Virus genome (UHGV): UHGV-0133264
Strand: one strand, 5' to 3'
DNA length: 21,778 bases
DNA from: a virus
In this document: piece after piece, positions 2,080 through 15,748 of the stretch
How positions within the stretch are numbered: the first letter of the stretch is position 1
Layout of the letters: every line of letters starts with the position of its first letter
Translations under genes and position numbers: made by a program
Notes under the pieces: generated by a model
The model's database searches: none
Told to the model about the DNA's origin: nothing
What the model saw: the letters and a program-made list of their open reading frames with translations, nothing else

Positions 2080-2961
2080 TCAGCGTCCTGAATCGGTATA
2101 CCCCCATACAAAACCAGGTTGGACACTAAGGTCTGATAGCTTTTCAATCCCCACCTGTGGAATGAAGTCGGTAGCCCGAAAGGGCACCCACAGACGGGTA
2201 TACGCACCCTCTGTGGACTCCTTTTTATCCTGATTTGGGCATTTATGCGGCGGGAGACGAAGACGCATTTCACCTTTATCGATGTAGCACGGTAAACCAT
2301 GTTCGAGCTTTTCATGAGCCAGTCGGATGTGTGCCGCCAGCTTCATAAATTCAGTATCAATGGCCATCCGTTTAATCGTTTCATAACGACGCTCAGCCTG
2401 ATCTTCACGAGTACCGCTAACATCGTTATAAAGCTCACACTGATAAGCGAATTCCCAAAAACGCAAATCAACGATCGCTTCTTTGAATTCCGCGTCGTCT
2501 TCAGGTGGCAATGCTGCACGGCGCATCTCCAGCATTTCCATTGCCCAACCATCAAGCGGCACGATACGCCATTGATAAGGTACTCCCTCTACAGACACCT
2601 CAATATCGTCAATGAAAGGTTCCACTTCCAGGACCTGGATATCTTCAGCCAGAGCATTCATATCGCAATCGTAATAATGCTCTTTACCGCAATGTTTACA
2701 GGTGTAAGTGAATGTCTCGACCGGTGTTTCACGGGAGCCGGTAAATATCCACCATAACGCGGTAATCCGGTCCTGCGCCGTCCATGTCAGGGGATCATGT
2801 TTCGCGGGTTCAGCCAGCAAGGCTTTTAAATACGCCGTTGTCTGTTGTTCTTGTTCCTCCGGTGTTATCGAGTTGAAACGCATCGCATCAGCAATATTTG
2901 GCTGACGGAACTGGATCAATTCAGTTGGCCGCGATGGTAGCGGGAAAAGGGGTAAAAGCAT
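2080..2961 (-). CDS. Hypothetical tail-morphogenesis protein with Cys-rich motif (CKHCGKEHYYDCD); P1 pmgB position
   Basis: 293-aa ORF with AAGGAG Shine-Dalgarno 5 nt before the ATG. Lies in the same operon between the tube-like gene and the tape-measure gene. Function unknown. Confidence 0.6.
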   Translation of the reverse strand: MLLPLFPLPSRPTELIQFRQPNIADAMRFNSITPEEQEQQTTAYLKALLAEPAKHDPLTWTAQDRITALWWIFTGSRETPVETFTYTCKHCGKEHYYDCDMNALAEDIQVLEVEPFIDDIEVSVEGVPYQWRIVPLDGWAMEMLEMRRAALPPEDDAEFKEAIVDLRFWEFAYQCELYNDVSGTREDQAERRYETIKRMAIDTEFMKLAAHIRLAHEKLEHGLPCYIDKGEMRLRLPPHKCPNQDKKESTEGAYTRLWVPFRATDFIPQVGIEKLSDLSVQPGFVWGYTDSGR

Positions 2962-2975
2962 CCTTGCTCCTTAAT

Positions 2976-3587
2976 TCAAAGAGAAAAACTAAAGCCCAGA
3001 AGGGAAGCCAAAGAACTTGAGGATTGGTTAAACGTGCTGTGCAATGCGAAGGTCATTGGGAATGACTTAAATTCCGTAACCTGATCCCGCGCATAGGTGA
3101 CATCGCCGGTAGTGACCGGGAATACAGTCATCTCATTTTCCAGTTTGGTTAAGCCGGAAGACAGCAACCGATAAATACGCACATTGAGCAAATATTTAGA
3201 CGGTATATTCCCGGTACCGTCTGGATTAATCACCCGACTTTTTGCCGTCTTAAACCAGTCCAAAACGAGGCCATCAACGGTATCCCTGACCATCATTGTT
3301 ATCTGCCCTGGCGAACGCTCCGTTGGTTGAAGGATATTCCCTCCGCCGATTTTAATCGTTTCATATTCGATGCTGTAATCGTGGTAGGTAATATCTTTGG
3401 CAAAGAAGTCTGCTCCCTCCAGTCCATCAACTTCGACAGAGAACTGCCATCCTTGCGCGAACAGCATTTTGTTCATGATGATTGACGTCAGCTTACCAAC
3501 TTCCCGCTCACCAACGCCGGAGCCAAATAATGTCGTCGTTAATGCCGAAGATACATAAGACTTTACTGAAGCAACATTAAGCCCCAT
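2976..3587 (-). CDS. Putative tail tube-like structural protein (P1 tub position)
   Basis: 203-aa ORF with a GAGGGGG Shine-Dalgarno that overlaps the stop codon of the upstream gene (tight coupling). Beta-rich composition of about 22 kDa. The tube assignment rests on synteny and size only. Confidence 0.45.
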   Translation of the reverse strand: MGLNVASVKSYVSSALTTTLFGSGVGEREVGKLTSIIMNKMLFAQGWQFSVEVDGLEGADFFAKDITYHDYSIEYETIKIGGGNILQPTERSPGQITMMVRDTVDGLVLDWFKTAKSRVINPDGTGNIPSKYLLNVRIYRLLSSGLTKLENEMTVFPVTTGDVTYARDQVTEFKSFPMTFALHSTFNQSSSSLASLLGFSFSL

Positions 3588-7486: not shown

Positions 7487-8286
7487 ATGCAACAAACATT
7501 CAATGCGGATATGAATATATCAAACCTTCATCAAAATGTCGATCCTTCAACCACTCTACCTGTTATTTGTGGTGTTGAAATTACGACCGACCGCGCTGGC
7601 CGTTACAACCTTAATGCTCTACACAGAGCGAGCGGACTCGGTGCCCATAAAGCGCCAGCTCAATGGCTAAGAACGCTGTCAGCCAAACAGCTCATTGAAG
7701 AGCTTGAAAAAGAAACTATGCAGAATTGCATAGTTTCGTTCGAAGGTCGTGGCGGCGGCACTTTTGCCCATGAATTGCTCGCTGTGGAGTACGCAGGTTG
7801 GATTTCTCCCGCGTTTCGGCTGAAGGTAAACCAGACATTTATCGACTATCGAGCCGGAAGATTACAACCAGCTATTCCGCAGAGTCTCCCTGAAGCACTC
7901 CGTTTGGCAGCCGACCTGGCAGAGCAAAAGCAACGCCTGGAGCAAAAAATGCTTATGGATGCCCCTAAAGTCGAATTCGCCGAACGCGTTGCTACCGCAG
8001 CGGGGTTCTAATCGGCAACTATGCCAAAGTGCTCGGCCTGGGCCAAAACTATCTCTTCACCTGGTTGCGTGATAACGGAATTCTGATCGCAACCGGTGAA
8101 CGCAGGAACGTCCCCAAACAAGAATACATATCCCGTGGGTATTTCACCCTTAAAGAAACCGTGATCGATACAAGCAATGGAAGCAGGATTTCTTTCACGA
8201 CTCGTATAACCGGCAAAGGTCAGCAGTGGCTTATGAAGCGATTGCTTGATGCTGGTGTGCTGGTGCCTATCGCGGCGACGCGCTAA
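7487..8286 (+). pseudogene. kilA: kilA (KilA-N domain plus Ant/KilA C-terminal domain) interrupted by a 1-nt frameshift near 8005
   Basis: ORF 7487-8011 (174 aa, KilA-N-like) and ORF 8029-8286 (85 aa, C-terminal domain) are colinear with the intact ant paralogue. Around 8001-8016 the sequence CGGGGTTCTAATCGGC reads F-stop, while the +2 frame reads LIGNYAKVLGLGQN, matching ILIGNFAKVVGLKQN in ant. The span is 800 nt; one more base restores a 266-aa protein. Confidence 0.7.
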
Positions 8287-8315: not shown

Positions 8316-9161
8316 ATGCTGGCTAAAGTCACTTTCCTGAGCTGTATAACGATGAGCGATTTTACTTTTTCTGGCTATGAATTGGCCTGCTTTGTAACAC
8401 ACTCCGGTCTATCCCGTAGCGCCGGGCATATCCTGTCGCAATGTGCAAATCTCGCGGCAACAACCAGTGAATACTTCATTCACAAGCCTCACCGCCTGAT
8501 CGCGGCAGAAACTGGTTATAGCCAATCAACCGTCGTTCGTGCATTCCGTGAAGCTGTAAACAAAGGAATCCTGTCTGTAGAGATTGTTATCGGCGATCAC
8601 CGTGAACGCCGCGCTAACCTGTACCGGTTTACACCATCCTTTTTGGCCTTCGCACAACAAGCTAAAAACGCGCTGACTGAAAGCAAATTAAAGATCTCTT
8701 CAGCCGCAACCAAGGTTAAAGCTGTTCTCGCTAAGACATTGGCTTTATTTGATTTTTTATCCACACCCCCATGTCAAAATGATACCCCCTCCCCCTGTCA
8801 GGATGACGTGGCAATAAAGAATAAGAAGTCACAAGTTAAAAAAACAAAAAGATCAGTTTCCGGCGGTGCCGGAACGACCAGACTCAAAAAATTGACTTCA
8901 TGGATCGCTGAGGCAAAAGCAAAGGCTGACAATCTGCGGTTATCCAAAAAACGCGCTCAAAAACATGAGTTCAAGCAGAAAGTAGAGGCGGCTGCGCGGA
9001 AATATGCTTACCTGAAGAACAAGCGTTCGCCTGATATTGGCGGGATATCAAACTTCGATAACCTACCGCATTGCATGACGGTAAACGAAGCTCTTAATGC
9101 GGTTTTAGCCAAAAATAAAGATAACGAACAATGGGGTATACCGGCGGGATTCAGAGGGTGA
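8316..9161 (+). CDS. repL: RepL, initiator of the lytic replicon (origin expected inside the gene)
   Basis: 281-aa ORF directly downstream of kilA under the Op53 operator. The stretch from MSDFTFSGYELACFV onward matches my recollection of P1 RepL. An alternative start at Met 13 (8352) is possible. Confidence 0.75.
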   Translation: MLAKVTFLSCITMSDFTFSGYELACFVTHSGLSRSAGHILSQCANLAATTSEYFIHKPHRLIAAETGYSQSTVVRAFREAVNKGILSVEIVIGDHRERRANLYRFTPSFLAFAQQAKNALTESKLKISSAATKVKAVLAKTLALFDFLSTPPCQNDTPSPCQDDVAIKNKKSQVKKTKRSVSGGAGTTRLKKLTSWIAEAKAKADNLRLSKKRAQKHEFKQKVEAAARKYAYLKNKRSPDIGGISNFDNLPHCMTVNEALNAVLAKNKDNEQWGIPAGFRG

Positions 9162-9211
9162 TAGATTGCTCTAATCTGGAGTCACCTGGCGTTTTCAGTT
9201 TGAGGTCGGAG

Positions 9212-9457
9212 ATGCAATCTGATTTTTTACAGTTAGCGATCGCTTTTGCAGGATATGTTTGCATTGGCTTCTGTGTATACATGATCAGCCGAAAAATACT
9301 TGTCGATATCGACCGCAAAGAACGAGCAGAGGAAATCTTAGTATGGATTTTCTTTGGCGCGGTCTGGCCATTAGGGATCATGTTTGCTGCAACATTTCTT
9401 CTGATGTGGATATTCACCCTTCCAGGTGATTTCTATAGAAAAAAAGCCAGACATTGA
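9212..9457 (+). CDS. Small two-helix membrane protein (possible P1 rlfA position)
   Basis: Listed ORF 9131-9457; the likely start is the internal ATG at 9212 with GAGG upstream, giving MQSDFLQLAIAFAGYVCIGFCVYMI... Two hydrophobic segments. Confidence 0.4.
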   Translation: MQSDFLQLAIAFAGYVCIGFCVYMISRKILVDIDRKERAEEILVWIFFGAVWPLGIMFAATFLLMWIFTLPGDFYRKKARH

Positions 9458-9639
9458 TACACCCGCTGCGGGTGCTTGAGGCTATCTGCTTCAGGCATTA
9501 CCCGACAAGCAGATAGAAAAAAGCCCCAGATAACATTACGCGTCCTGCAAGACGCTTAACATTAATCTGAGGCCATATCTATGCTTAGCATACGTAGATT
9601 AGCCCTCTCCCCTTTTAAGGAGCAAGGAATTTTTTACTG

Positions 9640-10272
9640 CTATGCCGCCTTTCCAGTTATGGATTCAGCGACAAGAACAACCCCATGCTTACTTCGATCT
9701 GGGTGTTCACTCCATATCTCGGATTCAGGAATACTTTCCCCGTCATAGCAAACACGTTCGCCGTCAAACGGGTAATACTGAGCGGCATCGGTGTCGAGGA
9801 TAAACACTTTTAGCTCGGAAGAGCGACGGGCGATGTGTTGCCAAAGAGCTTTTCCACCTTCGTATTGCTCATTATCACTGAGCAAAACAACACCAGCTTT
9901 TGAGGCTACGGTTTCGTAAACAAAAGTAGCTAAACCGACATCCCGGACGGTTCCATCAACCACGATACCTTCAATCTGGGCAACATCGCTATCCTCCCAG
10001 AACTTCCTTACCAGTACGCCTTCAAGCTGCGGGCGACGTTGAAGTTCAAGAGTAGCGACAACCTTATGGCGCATATCACCATCGATAACAGAAGGCGCAG
10101 CCTCTATTACAGCTGCAAATGGGGTTTTGGAATCCCATATAACCTGGTAAAGCACACCCTGGATGGTAACTCCGTCCAGGATCGAAAATCGACGAGCGAC
10201 AGTACCCGGGGAGTACGACATTGGAATCACAGCCATTTTAGAGTCCCCCTTTAACAGTACAGGCACAAACAT
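9640..10272 (-). CDS. Hypothetical protein (possible rlfB/pmgF position)
   Basis: 210-aa ORF. The likely start is Met 13 (about 10236), preceded by AAGGGGGA. Monocistronic: promoter-like AT-rich region upstream and the terminator of the neighbouring operon beyond it. Confidence 0.5.
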   Translation of the reverse strand: MFVPVLLKGDSKMAVIPMSYSPGTVARRFSILDGVTIQGVLYQVIWDSKTPFAAVIEAAPSVIDGDMRHKVVATLELQRRPQLEGVLVRKFWEDSDVAQIEGIVVDGTVRDVGLATFVYETVASKAGVVLLSDNEQYEGGKALWQHIARRSSELKVFILDTDAAQYYPFDGERVCYDGESIPESEIWSEHPDRSKHGVVLVAESITGKAA

Positions 10273-10363
10273 CTACCTCAATAATTGTAGTTTATTAGAA
10301 CATTAATAATCTAACATAAAACTCCAGACAATGTTATCGATGCATTTTTATATAAAAAGGTTA

Positions 10364-10386
10364 TAAAAAAAGCTCCCGAAGGAGCT
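10364..10386 (-). terminator. Rho-independent terminator ending the late head/sheath/tube operon
   Basis: On the minus strand: stem AGCTCC, loop TTCG, stem GGAGCT, followed by TTTTTTT. Lies about 20 bp after the stop of the 169-aa gene. Confidence 0.7.
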
Positions 10387-10407
10387 TTAAAATACAAGGG
10401 ATGACTC

Positions 10408-10917
10408 TTAATCCCACTCAATCCAGTTGTAGACGATACGAAGTGACGGGCGCACAGCGGCAGTCACATCTTCGGTACTAAAGTCGATTGCATCACTGTA
10501 GATTTTGCAGTCCAACATTTCAATTGTTGTAGCAGCTTTTGTCACAGCGTTAACCCCGGAAGATTTGGATTCAGGGGTAGCAGCCATCGTGATATCAACA
10601 TAGTCCTTCGCCGCAATGCGATCCTTAATGAACTGAAGAATATCGCCTTCGATAGTCTCCACGCACTGGACCTGGATTTCCCCAGAGTTTCGAATTGGTC
10701 CGTGCTGGTTGAACTTCACACCATTCGGACCATAGTCCTCCACATCCTCGCGGGTCATTTCAGGAATTTGCGACGTGCGAACCAGTACACTGATATCTTC
10801 ATAGCCTGCAAAAGTGAGCTGGAATTCAGACGATACCAGACGTTCGCCTTTAGCCGCGTTGGCAGTATAGCGGCCCTTAATAAATTTACGGTTTCCCTTA
10901 GTGTTATTGTGCCCCAT
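10408..10917 (-). CDS. Tail tube-like protein (gp19-type fold suspected)
   Basis: 169-aa beta-rich ORF, last gene of the operon. The C-terminus RIVYNWIEWD resembles the T4 gp19 C-terminal LALDYWE motif. Recalled motif only. Confidence 0.45.
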   Translation of the reverse strand: MGHNNTKGNRKFIKGRYTANAAKGERLVSSEFQLTFAGYEDISVLVRTSQIPEMTREDVEDYGPNGVKFNQHGPIRNSGEIQVQCVETIEGDILQFIKDRIAAKDYVDITMAATPESKSSGVNAVTKAATTIEMLDCKIYSDAIDFSTEDVTAAVRPSLRIVYNWIEWD

Positions 10918-10928
10918 ATAAAATCCTT

Positions 10929-11510
10929 TTACTGGAACGCCCGAACAATATCGGAACTGTTATATATCGAAGAACCGGTCAACTGGAGGTTGACGGTGTT
11001 TTTCAGGAAATGCCCATTGCTGTCCCTGGGCGCATCGAGATCGAAACTTATGTCCTGGATAGCGACATCAATGATGTTGATCCGGCGACCAATGTTTAGC
11101 GTCACCCGCTCCGGGATTCGACCACCAATACTGGCGTCTTTAAGTTCCGGGCTAATCATTGCTGACAACGCGGCGATAGCACCTGAAACTTCCGTATATG
11201 GGTTAAACAAAGCAATGAAAATTACTGGCAGCGTGAACGTCGGCGGAGTTCCCCCCTCCCAAACCATTAAGCTGTTCCAACGGGCAACTGACGTTGTTTC
11301 AGTACCAACCTGCGCAAAACCACTGAAGGCACCAGCAACAGAACCCATAGACATACCAGTAAACGGCGCTTCCCAATTCTGGGCCAGATTCATTGCCGCC
11401 CCCTGGCTGATATATCCGGTAACCTGGTACTGAGAGTTCGTTAAAGTAACTTTCAGAAATGGCGATACACCGTCAGCCTGGCTGTAAACCCCAAAAGGTA
11501 TAGGTGCCAT
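10929..11510 (-). CDS. Tail/baseplate structural protein (P1 bplB/pmgG position)
   Basis: 193-aa ORF tightly packed in the late operon. Gly/Ser/Thr-rich, beta-type composition. Confidence 0.45.
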   Translation of the reverse strand: MAPIPFGVYSQADGVSPFLKVTLTNSQYQVTGYISQGAAMNLAQNWEAPFTGMSMGSVAGAFSGFAQVGTETTSVARWNSLMVWEGGTPPTFTLPVIFIALFNPYTEVSGAIAALSAMISPELKDASIGGRIPERVTLNIGRRINIIDVAIQDISFDLDAPRDSNGHFLKNTVNLQLTGSSIYNSSDIVRAFQ

Positions 11511-11545
11511 TCAAGTTAAAGGCCGGAGTTCTCCGGCCTCCTCCT

Positions 11546-12361
11546 TTAGCCGAGGCGCTTACGGCGCAGTTTCATTGACTTTTTGCGGGCCAGTTTTGCC
11601 GCGCCGGTCTGGGCTTTACGACGCGCTTTTTTCAGCGCCGATTTTTGAGCCGCAGTCAGACGTTTTTTACGCAGACGTTTACGGATGAGTTTGATCTCGC
11701 CGTTACGAACAACCTTCTTAAATGCTTCAGTCAGCATTTCATCAGAAGTGCCAGCAACAACAAACGCCGCTTCAAGTTCGTCGCGGTCGTCGCTATCCAA
11801 ACCAGCGATAGCGGAACCAACATCAGCAGCTGCGTCGTCGTCTTCATCGTCGGCCAATGCTTCGATCAGGTCATCATCTACACCGCATGCTGCGAGGAAG
11901 TCAGCAACATTTGCCCATGCTTCGTTATAGGCATCGTCCTGTTCTTCTGTAACTTCGGTATCGTCGTCGTCAGAGATACCAGCAATAGCCTGAACGAAAC
12001 CATCAAGGGAGTCGAAAGTCAGATCACCGCTATCAGCCCAGGCGAAAACGGCATCGGCCGCATTACTCAACGCATTCTGCATAGCACTTCGATTTGCAGC
12101 TTCCAGAATCATCTTGTGCGCCTGTTCGACGGTCCATTCTTTACCTTCTTTCCCTTCCAGGATTTGCTCAGGTGCCGGGTCAGATTGAACGTTCTCGTTA
12201 ATCTGTGCCGCCGGTTCCGGATTATTATTAATCACCGGTTCGGTTGGCGGTTGGGCACTTGCACGGGCAGATTCCATTAACTGCACCGGATCAGCGTTCA
12301 AAGCGAAACGGGACAATTCATTCCCCAAAAATGCCCCTGATTGAAAAAAGTTTTTGCTCAT
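11546..12361 (-). CDS. Acidic/basic bipartite protein of the late operon
   Basis: 271 aa. Central region is extremely acidic (DDDDTEVTEEQDD..., DDEDDDAAAD, DSDDRDELE). The C-terminal ~55 aa are strongly basic (KLIRKRLRKKRLTAAQKSALKKARRKAQTGAAKLARKKSMKLRRKRLG). The antisense ORFs at 11645-12280 and 11685-11930 are artefacts. Confidence 0.6.
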   Translation of the reverse strand: MSKNFFQSGAFLGNELSRFALNADPVQLMESARASAQPPTEPVINNNPEPAAQINENVQSDPAPEQILEGKEGKEWTVEQAHKMILEAANRSAMQNALSNAADAVFAWADSGDLTFDSLDGFVQAIAGISDDDDTEVTEEQDDAYNEAWANVADFLAACGVDDDLIEALADDEDDDAAADVGSAIAGLDSDDRDELEAAFVVAGTSDEMLTEAFKKVVRNGEIKLIRKRLRKKRLTAAQKSALKKARRKAQTGAAKLARKKSMKLRRKRLG

Positions 12362-12370
12362 TGTATTCCC

Positions 12371-13960
12371 TTACTTAATAAGCAGCGGTACGCCCTGGAT
12401 ACGACGGGCTACACCTGTCGGGCAGCAGGCCCAGACCACTTCCCATTTATCGAATTCCGCCTGCGTAACTTTCAGCACATACGGTTCTGTACCGTCAGCA
12501 TCCGGATCACGCGGAGCCACCAGAGCGCCAGAGGCGACAAAGCGATCTAAAAGTTTGGTCATCCCTTTAGTCAGGCCAGACTCAGTAATGCCGTCCGGGT
12601 TATGCTTCATCTGTCGGGCTAGCTGGACAAAGAAACGGCTGATTGCGTTCATCAAGGATGGTACGTGCTGGAAATGCAGATAGTTGTCCTGCGTGCAGCA
12701 AGTTAAAGCATCATCGATGATCATCTGGCCAGAGGTGCCTACAGATACTTTATTGAGACGCCCCTTAACCATAGCTTCTTCGTCCGGGGTGTCTTCCGGA
12801 TACAGCGGCTGAAGTGATGCTCGAGCAATGACGGCACGTTCTTCACCAGCCGGTGAGTAATGCCAACCGCCGACATCGGAGTTTTTCTTAACGCCACGAG
12901 CTTTCGCCGCATACGCCGCGCCAGACAGACCGAAGACCACACGGGATTGGGTCCATTTGTCTTTGCAGGAGAACGGAAAGTGATAGACAGCACAGCTTAC
13001 ATAATCGGTACCAAGTAAACCGGTATCTTCAACAGCAGAGATCGCTTCCGTGTACGTCAATGTCGGTTTGACATCAAAGAAGCCATCAATCAGGCGATCA
13101 GAACAGATATTACCTAACGCGGTGATCGCCGCATTGTCATAGCAACCCAGGCCGAGAACAGCGGTGTACATGTACGGCGCATTGTTCAGCACTTTCACCG
13201 CACGCAGGTAAGCAGCAGTTGAGATTTTCGACTGATCGCCGTTGGTACCGCCAGTGAACGCCAGCGATTTTTTATTTGTTACTTTCGCGGTAGAAATCAG
13301 CTCTTCATTAACAACCGCGCGCAGATATTTAGAACGGGCTTCCAGAGCCGTAGGCAGATAACACAAGCGGCCCATGTCATCTTTCGCTTCTTCCGCCAAA
13401 GATACAATATGTGTCTCCAGGGTCGTAACCACACCGAGCGAAGTCGTCTGGGTCAGTTTCAGGAGGAAGCGTTCATTACCTGCGCTGTCCGCAGCTGCCG
13501 TTTCGATGGTTAACTCACGCGTAGGTGAAACGCATGGGTCGCCGTCATCAACGTAGATCGCAAAGGCTTCGCCGCTATCAAGTTCAATTTCAGAACCGTA
13601 TGGCAACGCGCTGTAAGCCGGTTCGCCTGATTCATCGAACATAATAATCGGGAACTTCGCATCATCCGGAACAGCACGAACAACATAACCAGACGTTTGC
13701 TGAATAGCTTCGTACACATGACGAATTGGTTCGAACTGTGAGCCGGAAGACGGCTTCAGCGGTTCGCCGAGAACATCTTCGTAATTAGACTCAGTAACAG
13801 CGAGAACAGTAAACGGCTTGCCACGCGCAAATACGCCAATACCAGCCCATAAGCTGCTATTTAATGCAACACCGGTAGATAACGTCGCATCGGCATTGAT
13901 CGGGCTAACCGCTACGCCGGATGCATTACCTAATGACTGTTGAATTGAATATTGAGACAT
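12371..13960 (-). CDS. Tail sheath protein (P1 gene 22 position)
   Basis: 529-aa ORF immediately downstream of the major head gene and upstream of the tube/baseplate genes. AGGGAAAG Shine-Dalgarno. Assignment by synteny and size, not by alignment. Confidence 0.5.
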   Translation of the reverse strand: MSQYSIQQSLGNASGVAVSPINADATLSTGVALNSSLWAGIGVFARGKPFTVLAVTESNYEDVLGEPLKPSSGSQFEPIRHVYEAIQQTSGYVVRAVPDDAKFPIIMFDESGEPAYSALPYGSEIELDSGEAFAIYVDDGDPCVSPTRELTIETAAADSAGNERFLLKLTQTTSLGVVTTLETHIVSLAEEAKDDMGRLCYLPTALEARSKYLRAVVNEELISTAKVTNKKSLAFTGGTNGDQSKISTAAYLRAVKVLNNAPYMYTAVLGLGCYDNAAITALGNICSDRLIDGFFDVKPTLTYTEAISAVEDTGLLGTDYVSCAVYHFPFSCKDKWTQSRVVFGLSGAAYAAKARGVKKNSDVGGWHYSPAGEERAVIARASLQPLYPEDTPDEEAMVKGRLNKVSVGTSGQMIIDDALTCCTQDNYLHFQHVPSLMNAISRFFVQLARQMKHNPDGITESGLTKGMTKLLDRFVASGALVAPRDPDADGTEPYVLKVTQAEFDKWEVVWACCPTGVARRIQGVPLLIK

Positions 13961-14020
13961 AACTTTCCCTGTTATGCGCCCCGCGCGGGGGCGCTATGTT
14001 AAACGGAGAGCTTCCCCTGA

Positions 14021-15748
14021 TTACTCAGAGTCACCAGCATCAATCGTGTTACCGGTCAGGAAGTTAATTCCGCCATTTTTTGCCATAGTCAGAGTTACAC
14101 GGGTGAAGTAGTCAGCACCGTTGCGTGGATGCATATCGTTGATAGCAGAACCCCACAGAGTGGTTCGGTTGACCAGTGCCGGGGTGGTCGGATGCTGGAA
14201 TGGGATAGCCGGGACCGCATCACCAGTCACGAAGCCTGCCTTGCCCGGATTTTCATCACGGACGTAGCACAGCACATCCATCGGGCTGAACTGGATACCT
14301 TCGGCGGTCAGGTTCGTGCAAATACCTTCAGGTACTTCGTACACCTTCACGTTACCGAACAGGGTGCCGATGAAGTGAACGTACGGAGTCTGGGTATATT
14401 CTTCAGCTGGCTGGAAGAAATCCTTCGGAAGCTGTTTGAAGAAAGATGCAGCATCAGCACCAGCAAACATCCCCATCGCACCAGAAGATTTAACGCGCTC
14501 AATAATGTCGCGATATACAGTCTGGAATTTGCCGCGAATGATGGTTGCCCATACATCAAAGGACTGGTTAACCGGCAGAGCGATGTCAAAGGAGTCGGTC
14601 GCAAGAGTACGCCAGATCATGATGCGAAGACGCAGCATATCCTGTTCATGAGACAGGTATTCCTTCAGGGTGCGGAACTGTAGGGACCCCAGGTCCAGAC
14701 CAAACTCACGCTGTGCTTCATACGCCGCCTGTACCGTGTGCTCAGCCGCGATGACGAACTGGCTTGGGAACAGGGTGTAACTCTTCATTTCGTGGTTGAT
14801 AAGTGGGATCAGCTCAGGAGCTGCTTCAATATTGATCTCCGCCTCAATGGCGATCTCTGTACCTTTATCCGGCGCTTTGGAGAACGACAGGGCAATCTGA
14901 CCAATGTTGTAGTTCAGAGAGCAGGTAACAGTAATTTGTTCGCCAGCTTTGTTATTGAATGTGTGAAGCAGAGTACCGGAGCCGTTATCAACAACAGACT
15001 TAATGCGGTTAACGTAGATATTTGTACGGCCTTTGCGGATCGGGACATTCTGGCCTTCAAAGTCTTCCATCTTGAAGGTTGCGGTTTTGCTGGTGCCATC
15101 GGAACTTGCCACCAACACATAGCGGCGGCGCAGTTGGCTATACACACCAACAGATTGCATATCCAGAACATCACCCGAAGCATAAGAACCAAAAGAGGAA
15201 CCCGCTACGTTAAAGATTTCATAGATTTCGGACTTGTCACGCGTAACTGGAATGAAGGTACACGCATCAGCGGTAGCTGCCCCCAACTGAACAGGCAGGA
15301 TCATCGCGAGGAATAAAGGCAGACGCATAACACCGTCAGAAACGCTCATCATCTCTGCTGCGACGGATTCCAGCATCGCTTTATTGGTGGCATCCATGCT
15401 ATTGCGGGTGGACTCAATCAGGCAGTTTTCCAGAGTCTGGTGGCAGGAGGCCAGAATTTCCGGACGCGGCATAGATTTATGTGCTGCGGCGTAGTCAGCC
15501 AGTGCACTTGCCCACGCTGTAGCGATTTGAGCAGTGGCATTATCAGAGATACCTGCAAAAATCGGGTCTTTGCGTGCAGCTTCAAGGATAGATGCGGCAC
15601 GTGCGGCATCATCTTTGATGAATTGGTTATCAGTACCGAACTGTGCTGTACTTGCCCAGCCAAGAACGGCTTTAGAGCGTTTTGCGATATCTGCAATACG
15701 ATTCTGGTATTCGCGTAAGTTACTCAAGTTACTCTTCCTTAAACACAA
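14021..15748 (-). CDS. Major head (capsid) protein precursor (P1 gene 23 position)
   Basis: 575-aa ORF adjacent to parS. N-terminal ~130 aa are Ala-rich and helical, consistent with a cleaved delta/scaffold domain. The listed start is TTG; a second TTG seven codons in is preceded by AAGGAAGAG and is the more likely start. Confidence 0.55.
   Translation of the reverse strand: MCLRKSNLSNLREYQNRIADIAKRSKAVLGWASTAQFGTDNQFIKDDAARAASILEAARKDPIFAGISDNATAQIATAWASALADYAAAHKSMPRPEILASCHQTLENCLIESTRNSMDATNKAMLESVAAEMMSVSDGVMRLPLFLAMILPVQLGAATADACTFIPVTRDKSEIYEIFNVAGSSFGSYASGDVLDMQSVGVYSQLRRRYVLVASSDGTSKTATFKMEDFEGQNVPIRKGRTNIYVNRIKSVVDNGSGTLLHTFNNKAGEQITVTCSLNYNIGQIALSFSKAPDKGTEIAIEAEINIEAAPELIPLINHEMKSYTLFPSQFVIAAEHTVQAAYEAQREFGLDLGSLQFRTLKEYLSHEQDMLRLRIMIWRTLATDSFDIALPVNQSFDVWATIIRGKFQTVYRDIIERVKSSGAMGMFAGADAASFFKQLPKDFFQPAEEYTQTPYVHFIGTLFGNVKVYEVPEGICTNLTAEGIQFSPMDVLCYVRDENPGKAGFVTGDAVPAIPFQHPTTPALVNRTTLWGSAINDMHPRNGADYFTRVTLTMAKNGGINFLTGNTIDAGDSE

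Follow-up and report, generated by a model that had tools for sequence, protein, structure and literature searches.

In phage T4, the proteins of the prohead core are cut after glutamate residues preceded, two or three places earlier, by a hydrophobic one, and the same type of site is used to trim the capsid protein; the acidic core proteins are broken down into small peptides that exit the head, and the basic internal proteins remain on the DNA and are injected along with it (PMC9958956). The capsid protein of phage P1, gp23, matches that of T4 with an HHpred probability of 100% (PMC9024508 supplement), and an HHpred two-sequence alignment of the P1 protease, Pro, with gp4, the protease of HK97, reveals conserved secondary structure (PMC9024508). 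Pro trims gp23 and DarA. In gp23 it cuts at E120↓S121 (AMLE↓SVAAEM, the arrow marking the cut), the mature N-terminus, SVAAEM, having been established by Edman sequencing (PMC9024508). In DarA, the other known substrate, residues 1-69 have no resolved density in cryo-EM (PMC12810830), and we find that the protein carries DLLE68↓A69. The P1 capsid protein has a 120-residue, scaffold-like (delta-like) N-terminal domain, and both recent structural papers on P1 state that this phage lacks a separate scaffold or core protein; neither gives a role to gene 21, the subject of this analysis.

Scaffolds of the herpesvirus/HK97 lineage are released by assemblin-type proteases, which cut, at the M-site, just upstream of a short conserved C-terminal module. 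The C-terminal tail of the herpesvirus scaffold binds the capsid protein. The P22 scaffold gp8 is helical and absent from the virion, binds coat electrostatically through a basic C-terminal helix-loop-helix, and is recycled intact, not cleaved. In adenovirus, pVII and pX (which gives rise to mu) yield highly basic DNA-condensing peptides, freed from their precursors inside the capsid by the viral maturation protease. The tail assembly chaperones lambda gpG/gpGT and P2 gpE/E+E' are helical and acidic; tails cannot be built without them, and virions do not contain them. They are encoded within the tail module, immediately before the tape measure gene, and their expression involves a programmed frameshift.

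The stretch of DNA that we analyzed (hereafter the window) comprises 21,778 nucleotides of the virus genome UHGV-0133264 and, judged by its sequence, is that of a P1-type (Punavirus) phage-plasmid. Bases 10300-14100 show 94.6-96% DNA identity to P1, P7, SJ46 and RCS47, and parA, parB, repA, repL, ant, kilA, pmgB, tub and pmgC are found elsewhere in the window. The open reading frame (ORF) at 11546-12361 on the minus strand begins with ATG and stays open through to its stop codon, encoding 271 residues with a predicted mass of 29.4 kDa and a pI of 4.6. The product shares 95% amino-acid identity with P1 gp21, which identifies the ORF as the P1 gene 21 ortholog. It occupies the third place in a late operon of five genes, which reads, on the minus strand, 23 (capsid), 22 (sheath), 21, pmgG and bplB, followed by an intrinsic terminator:

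14021-15748, minus strand: gene 23, which opens the operon and encodes the major capsid protein (PHROG 1014)

12371-13960, minus strand: gene 22, tail sheath, adjoining gene 21 upstream (PHROG 1036, E = 8e-231; P1 annotation)

11546-12361, minus strand: gene 21 ortholog, 271 aa, with an N-terminal peptide, an acidic helical core and a polybasic C-terminal module (ORF translation and homology)

10929-11510, minus strand: pmgG, tube-linking (T4 gp48-like) protein, adjoining gene 21 downstream (PHROG 1114; PMC9024508, PMC12810830)

10408-10917, minus strand: bplB, closing gene of the operon, encoding the true tail tube protein (PHROG 1120, tail tube; PMC12810830)

10369-10388, minus strand: strong intrinsic terminator of 23-22-21-pmgG-bplB, AAAGCTCC-TTCG-GGAGCTTT then TTTTAT

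A 35-nt gap with a hairpin lies between gene 21 and pmgG. The sheath gene separates gene 21 from the capsid gene within the same operon, and P1 pro and prt lie elsewhere. An earlier note on this DNA, made from the letters alone, had placed the ORF between sheath and tube/baseplate genes; the location holds in that gene 21 sits between the sheath gene and pmgG, but the details had to be corrected, the true tail tube gene being bplB. BplB forms 52 hexameric tail-tube rings according to the cryo-EM paper, which cites earlier work by the same authors (PMC12810830).

The P1 reference record labels gene 21 "baseplate or tail tube," and derived records copy "tail tube protein." The gene is thus already known, but its current annotation is probably wrong. 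Indeed, gp21 is absent from the LC-MS/MS table of the P1 virion, in which its neighbors BplB, PmgG, gp22 and gp23 are present, and the supplement of the same paper holds no gp21 entry (PMC9024508). It is likewise absent from the 2026 cryo-EM model of P1, where BplB is the tube, Tub the tube initiator and PmgG the tube linker (PMC12810830). gp21 is not a virion tail component. A structural tail tube or baseplate role is not supported, as the predicted model of gp21 is all-helical, the protein is missing from the virion data, and BplB, Tub and PmgG fill the tube-fold roles. The proteomics is uninformative, however, on whether a peptide derived from gp21 is retained, since the tryptic peptides of its basic C-terminal module are all ≤7 aa and the acidic core gives a single peptide of 102 aa.

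Profile searches place the protein in a large family. It matches PHROG 1053 (E = 7e-98, residues 17-270), a group without an assigned function, and an exhaustive HMM search retrieved 596 cluster representatives at E ≤ 0.001, none of them annotated. No Pfam or NCBIfam family was matched, the only hits being below-threshold noise (Tape_meas_lam_C, E = 0.045; PHB esterase, E = 0.015). The family profile had 0 matches at E ≤ 10 against all PDB sequences, a Foldseek search of viral predicted structures gave nothing at E ≤ 0.001, and tblastn with a Vibrio relative found no match in cultured phages. A confident profile hit to a known tail chaperone or scaffold family, which the earlier note had named as the result that would overturn its reading, did not appear; the profile and fold searches for such families returned no matches at all.

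The charge of gp21 is distributed in a highly polarized manner. Residues 111-210 hold 33 D/E and 1 K/R (net −32) and residues 211-271 hold 26 K/R and 2 D/E (net +24); of 20,000 shuffled versions of the sequence, 0 contained both a 50-residue window of net −22 and another of net +22. The long acidic region and Arg/Lys-rich C-terminal tail described in the earlier note are thus borne out. This layout is kept in an alignment of 29 divergent relatives. Across the family the K+R and D+E counts correlate (r = 0.80), and the net charge of the 166 members with one basic module is −9.5 ± 4, which makes the precursor mildly acidic. The AlphaFold2 model is all-helical with a mean pLDDT of 70.9; its helices reach pLDDT 85-93 over about residues 75-205, and a low-confidence linker (208-221) is followed by two C-terminal helices (236-248 and 252-269) with pLDDT 64-80. 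From these data we divided the protein into the following parts:

12272-12361, minus strand: N-terminal peptide, residues 1-30, predicted to be disordered (pLDDT below 50), with a conserved M..F..G start and ending at proposed protease site 1; candidate targeting peptide or pro-peptide

11726-12100, minus strand: acidic helical core, residues 88-212, net −34, 13 kDa; would act as a scaffold-like pro-region that masks charge (AlphaFold2, charge counts)

11549-11725, minus strand: polybasic module, residues 213-271, 6.8 kDa, net +25, pI 12, AFKKVVRNG...KSMKLRRKRLG; the best-conserved part of the family

In the 29 divergent members, every invariant column except G159, and most of the near-invariant ones, falls in the polybasic module, with R218, G220, A245, R258 and K260 invariant. 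The consensus of the module in these 29 relatives is KVVRNGxVxLIRKRxRKxRLSAAQKAALKKARRKAxTxAAKLARKKSMKLRxKRG, and the C-terminal module KVVRxG...QKxALKKARxKA...KSMKxRxxxG is also present in phages of Bacillus and Listeria. Specifically, the polybasic module is 63% identical over 68 aa to gp066 of Bacillus phage HSE3, whereas the capsid proteins of the two phages share 22%. That the basic module is so much more conserved than the capsid protein points to a ligand that does not vary, most obviously DNA, to which the polybasic peptide probably binds. Two other likenesses of the module were considered and rejected. A ribbon-helix-helix fold was hinted at by one relative with a sub-threshold match to RHH_6 (E = 0.013), but seven others gave none; a resemblance to ribosomal protein S21 was not borne out by any Pfam match, even at E ≤ 10.

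The acidic and basic parts meet at a motif that resembles the known sites of Pro. Three such motifs, LME↓S, ILE↓A and LTE↓A, are found in gp21 and resemble MLE↓S of gp23 and LLE↓A of DarA; their general form is two hydrophobic residues and Glu, then Ser or Ala after the proposed cut. Their positions, and that of the capsid site used as reference, are:

12269-12280, minus strand: proposed protease site 1, L28-M29-E30↓S31; in 199 members [IMLVF][LFM][E 137 / D 32][S 112 / A 18 / G 14]

12098-12109, minus strand: site 2, a weaker candidate, I85-L86-E87↓A88, where the long helix begins; of 199 members, 87 have E and 32 have D before the cut, and 126 have A after it

11723-11734, minus strand: proposed protease site 3, L210-T211-E212↓A213, precisely where acidic core and basic tail meet; in 199 members [IMLV][LMTF][E 145 / D 44][A 142 / S 38]

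15365-15376, minus strand: capsid maturation site in gene 23, KAMLESVA, reference for the co-variation analysis (translation; P1 Edman site)

Among the 199 family members, sites 1 and 3 are conserved amid otherwise variable sequence, and two of the three gp21 motifs, site 3 among them, sit in low-pLDDT linkers. The motifs are also concentrated in this family. When the motif was defined separately for each genome, it occurred 1.01 times per 100 aa in gp21 relatives, compared with 0.14 in the other ORFs of the same loci, an approximately 7-fold enrichment, and with 0.19 for a control motif bearing the other acidic residue. Shuffled sequences contained 16.4 ± 4.1 genome-specific motifs, as against 96 observed in the gp21 relatives.

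The residue preceding the cut varies within the family, and we asked how it relates to the capsid site of the same genome. Paired loci, carrying both a capsid gene and a gp21 relative, were collected with a scan of viral contigs seeded with divergent sequences, giving 44 representatives below 85% identity. The capsid proteins were aligned independently, and the residue aligned to P1 E120 was read off. The residue before the cut agreed between the capsid site and gp21 site 3 in 44 of 44 genomes (31 E/E, 10 D/D and 3 S-A/S-A). On a neighbor-joining (NJ) tree of the capsid proteins, the residue before the cut underwent at least six parsimony changes, which represent independent switches. Of all gp21 columns, column 212 shared the most information with the capsid site, its mutual information of 1.106 bits equaling the full entropy and that of the runner-up being 0.711 bits; in the reciprocal test, the cleavage position itself was the best capsid column for gp21 site 3. 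Agreement of site 2 with the capsid-site residue was partial (0.61). Sites 1 and 3 also vary together within the protein, with 131 E/E, 31 D/D and 7 S-A/S-A members and about 9 discordant ones. A protein that does not encounter the prohead protease has no reason to track its specificity; gp21 is thus very probably a substrate of Pro and, hence, resides inside the prohead.

The arrangement of motifs in divergent members bears on what is released. Three family members have two basic modules, each flanked by motifs, and in these the D/E count doubles along with that of K/R. The N-terminal acidic extension of member P0179 has seven xLD↓xA repeats, and those of P0094, P0095 and P0181 each have several LLE↓S or MFE↓S repeats. 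In Thornevirus-type phages of Bacillus and Listeria, whose capsid protein is of the Gp23 type and whose T4-type S77 protease carries a fused coiled coil, the family member comes just after a gp13-like neck gene and its basic module is internal. In HSE3 this internal module lies between NLDE↓A and RLGE↓S; in SP-15 its flanks are LDE↓R and FKE↓S. These patterns suggest that the basic module behaves as an excised unit across the family.

We consider it probable, with moderate confidence, that gp21 is not a tail protein but a head precursor that is loaded into the prohead and cut there by Pro, with an acidic pro-region and a basic peptide that ends up with the DNA. The basis is in silico: membership of the family, the charge layout, the conserved motifs and the co-variation with the capsid site. 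From it we infer that gp21 resides in the prohead and is cleaved, and what becomes of the basic peptide, including its binding to DNA. The precursor would be made in bulk from the operon that also encodes capsid and sheath, an operon structure that is observed. In the cytoplasm, its acidic part may neutralize the basic module, leaving the precursor net negative; the charge compensation is observed in the family, and masking would be its consequence. After entry of the precursor into the prohead, Pro would cut after E30, probably after E79/E87, and after E212, as the motifs and the co-variation suggest. The predicted products are small N-terminal pieces, the 13-kDa acidic helical core and a 59-residue polybasic peptide. 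The acidic fragments would leave or be displaced by the incoming DNA, as scaffold fragments are, and the 6.8-kDa peptide, of net +25, would stay on the DNA as a counter-ion or condensing peptide and may be co-injected. The packaged internal protein with a DNA-binding basic tail that figured among the suggestions of the earlier note comes close to the reading that we favor, with DNA binding a probable rather than an observed property. Its alternative of a scaffold or chaperone pointed in the right direction as to "scaffold," but for the head and not for the tail.

Compared with the T4 core proteins gp22, gp67, gp68 and IPI-III, which are cut by the T4 gp21 protease, P1 gp21 is alike in its proposed prohead loading and proposed cutting after glutamate, but no similarity in sequence or fold was detected. 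Unlike in T4, the acidic scaffold-like and the basic internal-protein-like parts are joined in one polypeptide, and the product proposed to be retained is a 59-residue peptide and not a folded protein. The best-supported placement of this fused acidic pro-region and excised polybasic peptide is as a variant within the known class of prohead core and internal proteins. The adenovirus precursors belong to an unrelated virus lineage and are cut by an unrelated protease, and represent an analogy without homology.

Gene position also differs from the T4 pattern, in which such genes lie next to that of the protease. In the loci of relatives that we examined, the family gene was always among tail or neck genes and never next to the protease gene. 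Distant relatives from Vibrio, Mailhella and a metagenomic prophage hold the morphogenetic genes of P1 in one contiguous block, ordered MCP-x-sheath-gp21-PmgG-BplB-PmgC-Tub-PmgB-Sit-PmgA-BplA-gp16, and in Thornevirus-type phages the order is protease-MCP-x-neck-[family member], with the family member 5-6 genes before the sheath gene. This steady placement among tail and neck genes counts against a head function.

An alternative that shares the cleavage-site evidence, but that we think unlikely, is that gp21 is a head scaffold with a releasable anchor, as in herpesviruses and P22: the basic C-terminal helix-loop-helix would bind the capsid, the cut at E212 would free the acidic body, and all fragments would leave. 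The proposed cut does lie just upstream of a short conserved C-terminal module, as at the herpesvirus M-site, and the two C-terminal helices predicted at 236-248 and 252-269 (pLDDT 64-80) fit such an anchor. No homology to P22 gp8 was detected. An anchor that leaves would also suit a phage in which no scaffold has been identified, and would fit the cryo-EM paper, which mentions no unassigned or extra density inside the capsid (PMC12810830). Against this stands the conservation pattern, as the basic module is 63% conserved and the capsid protein that it would bind only 22%, which, unlike in herpesviruses, disfavors a capsid-binding role for the tail. In addition, the tandem modules flanked by sites and the internal, doubly flanked modules look like excised products, and gp23 already carries a delta-like N-terminal domain.

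Less likely still, in our estimation, is a tail assembly factor that stays out of the virion. Such a protein would serve the baseplate hub, tube or tape measure as chaperone or scaffold, and its acidic domain would bind a basic partner such as the basic region of the tape measure Sit. Reportedly, P1 gene 21 was defined by Walker and Walker in 1983 through amber mutants with a tail or baseplate defect, the origin of the "baseplate or tail tube" label, which this reading would explain. It would also accommodate the absence of gp21 from the virion, the position between sheath and tube linker that is conserved in distant relatives, and a basic stretch in Sit (residues 301-400, 19 K/R and 3 D/E). 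CRISPRi scores gene 21 as essential, but the CRISPRi authors themselves stress polarity. Both phenotypes are confounded, since an amber codon or a dCas12a roadblock would be polar on the downstream essential tail genes pmgG and bplB, and polarity can thus explain the mutant and CRISPRi results alike. The mapping of the classical cistron among the three adjacent ORFs 21, pmgG and bplB is also uncertain, a further confounder of the amber phenotype.

A tail factor, moreover, would never meet the prohead protease, which leaves the 44/44 agreement with the capsid site, the co-variation within the protein and the 7-fold motif enrichment unexplained. Nor does the gene occupy the place of the lambda and P2 chaperones. 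It had been thought to replace the tail-chaperone slot of contractile-tail phages, but in the contiguous module of distant relatives PmgB is directly upstream of the tape measure and holds that slot, with gp21 five genes further upstream; in the Thornevirus-type phages it accompanies the neck genes, and the sheath gene follows five to six genes later. No similarity to tail chaperones in profile or fold was found, and no support was found for the proposal that the acidic domain binds the Lys-rich tape measure. There is also no overlapping frame; a programmed frameshift of the gpG/GT type finds no support, as no overlapping or continuing ORF is present on the same strand at the 3' end of gene 21.

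Finally, we regard as highly improbable the earlier proposal of a DNA-mimic anti-restriction factor, in which the acidic core (125 aa, net −34) would be packaged and injected to block restriction enzymes: the dense acidic charge on a compact helical domain, presumably similar in size and charge to T7 Ocr, the escape of a core with a 102-aa tryptic peptide from LC-MS/MS and the known packaging of anti-restriction proteins by P1 speak for it, but we found no structural likeness to known mimics of the Ocr or ArdA type.

Extending the head-precursor reading to the family as a whole, we suggest more tentatively that its approximately 600 clusters may represent "pro-protamine" polyproteins of T4-like-headed myoviruses, in which one or two copies of a near-universally conserved polybasic peptide of ∼58 residues would be escorted into the prohead by an acidic pro-region, excised by the capsid-maturation protease and kept on the packaged genome as a counter-ion, condensing agent or co-injected escort of the DNA. 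If so, trypsin-based proteomics and cryo-EM would both have overlooked a component of the virion of a much-studied phage. P1 is both a classic model phage and a delivery vehicle. Were the head-precursor reading of gp21 true, the 20-year-old annotation "baseplate or tail tube," which has spread through P1-like records, would be wrong, P1 head assembly would be closer to the T4 core pathway than to the HK97 pathway, and a widespread family without annotation would acquire a function open to testing. More generally, co-variation of the cleavage residue between the capsid protein and a candidate may predict substrates of prohead proteases from sequence alone. A polybasic peptide released by the protease and bound to packaged DNA would, if true, bear on packaging energetics, virion stability, transduction and the use of P1 capsids as cargo carriers.

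In the interval between the stop codon of gene 21 and the start codon of pmgG, the window carries a short inverted repeat:

11523-11542, minus strand: GC-rich hairpin

It reads GGCCGGAG-AA-CTCCGGCC and is followed by TTTAAC. The terminator scan did not call this hairpin because the T run is short. It may serve as a partial terminator; alternatively, it may be an mRNA-stabilizing structure dividing 23-22-21 from pmgG-bplB. Further along, downstream of bplB, the stretch from 9131 to 10272 is unlike P1:

9640-10272, minus strand: 210-aa ORF (PHROG 7522; weak GNAT-like match)
9131-9457: 108-aa membrane-like ORF, after repL

The former replaces the 98-aa pmgF of P1, and the latter takes the place of rlfA and rlfB. 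A further departure from P1 was found in kilA:

7487-8286, plus strand: kilA, 97.6% identical to P1 kilA

Compared with the P1 gene, kilA has a 1-nt deletion that changes the reading frame from roughly codon 173 onward and splits the gene into two ORFs (7487-8011 and 8029-8286). Either this host-killing gene has been inactivated, or the deletion reflects an error in sequencing.

Gene order bears on which protein might assist tail assembly:

2080-2961, minus strand: pmgB, with a weak match to Pfam T4_baseplate (PF12322; E = 0.004)

Since pmgB always lies immediately upstream of the tape-measure gene in distant relatives, its product PmgB is the stronger candidate for a factor assisting assembly of the tape measure or the hub. 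Three distant relatives (L002, L004 and L005) also have an extra small ORF, 103 to 182 aa long, that separates the capsid gene from the sheath gene and is missing from both P1 and the window.

Two proteins encoded by the P1 sequence L011 bear on maturation by the head protease, Pro:

2515-3534: P1 pro, encoding the 339-aa Pro
11405-13324: P1 darA, encoding DarA, with the motif DLLE68|A69

Pro contains a coiled-coil region toward its C-terminal side (about residues 200 to 285), and the hydrophobic-hydrophobic-E|S motif occurs six or seven times in the protein; together these features suggest a self-processing protease-scaffold fusion resembling gp062 of Bacillus phage HSE3. The DarA motif is of the same type as the site in the capsid protein gp23, and cryo-EM resolved no density for DarA residues 1 to 69; we therefore arrive at a precise prediction of the DarA cleavage site, E68|A69.

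Finally, in a minority lineage (loci L005, L171 and L172; proteins P0070, P0075, P0106, P0122, P0127, P0143 and P0151), Ser or Ala replaces the Glu or Asp preceding the proposed cut. The replacement is seen in the capsid protein as well as in the relative of gp21, which implies that the specificity of the maturation protease has changed in this lineage.
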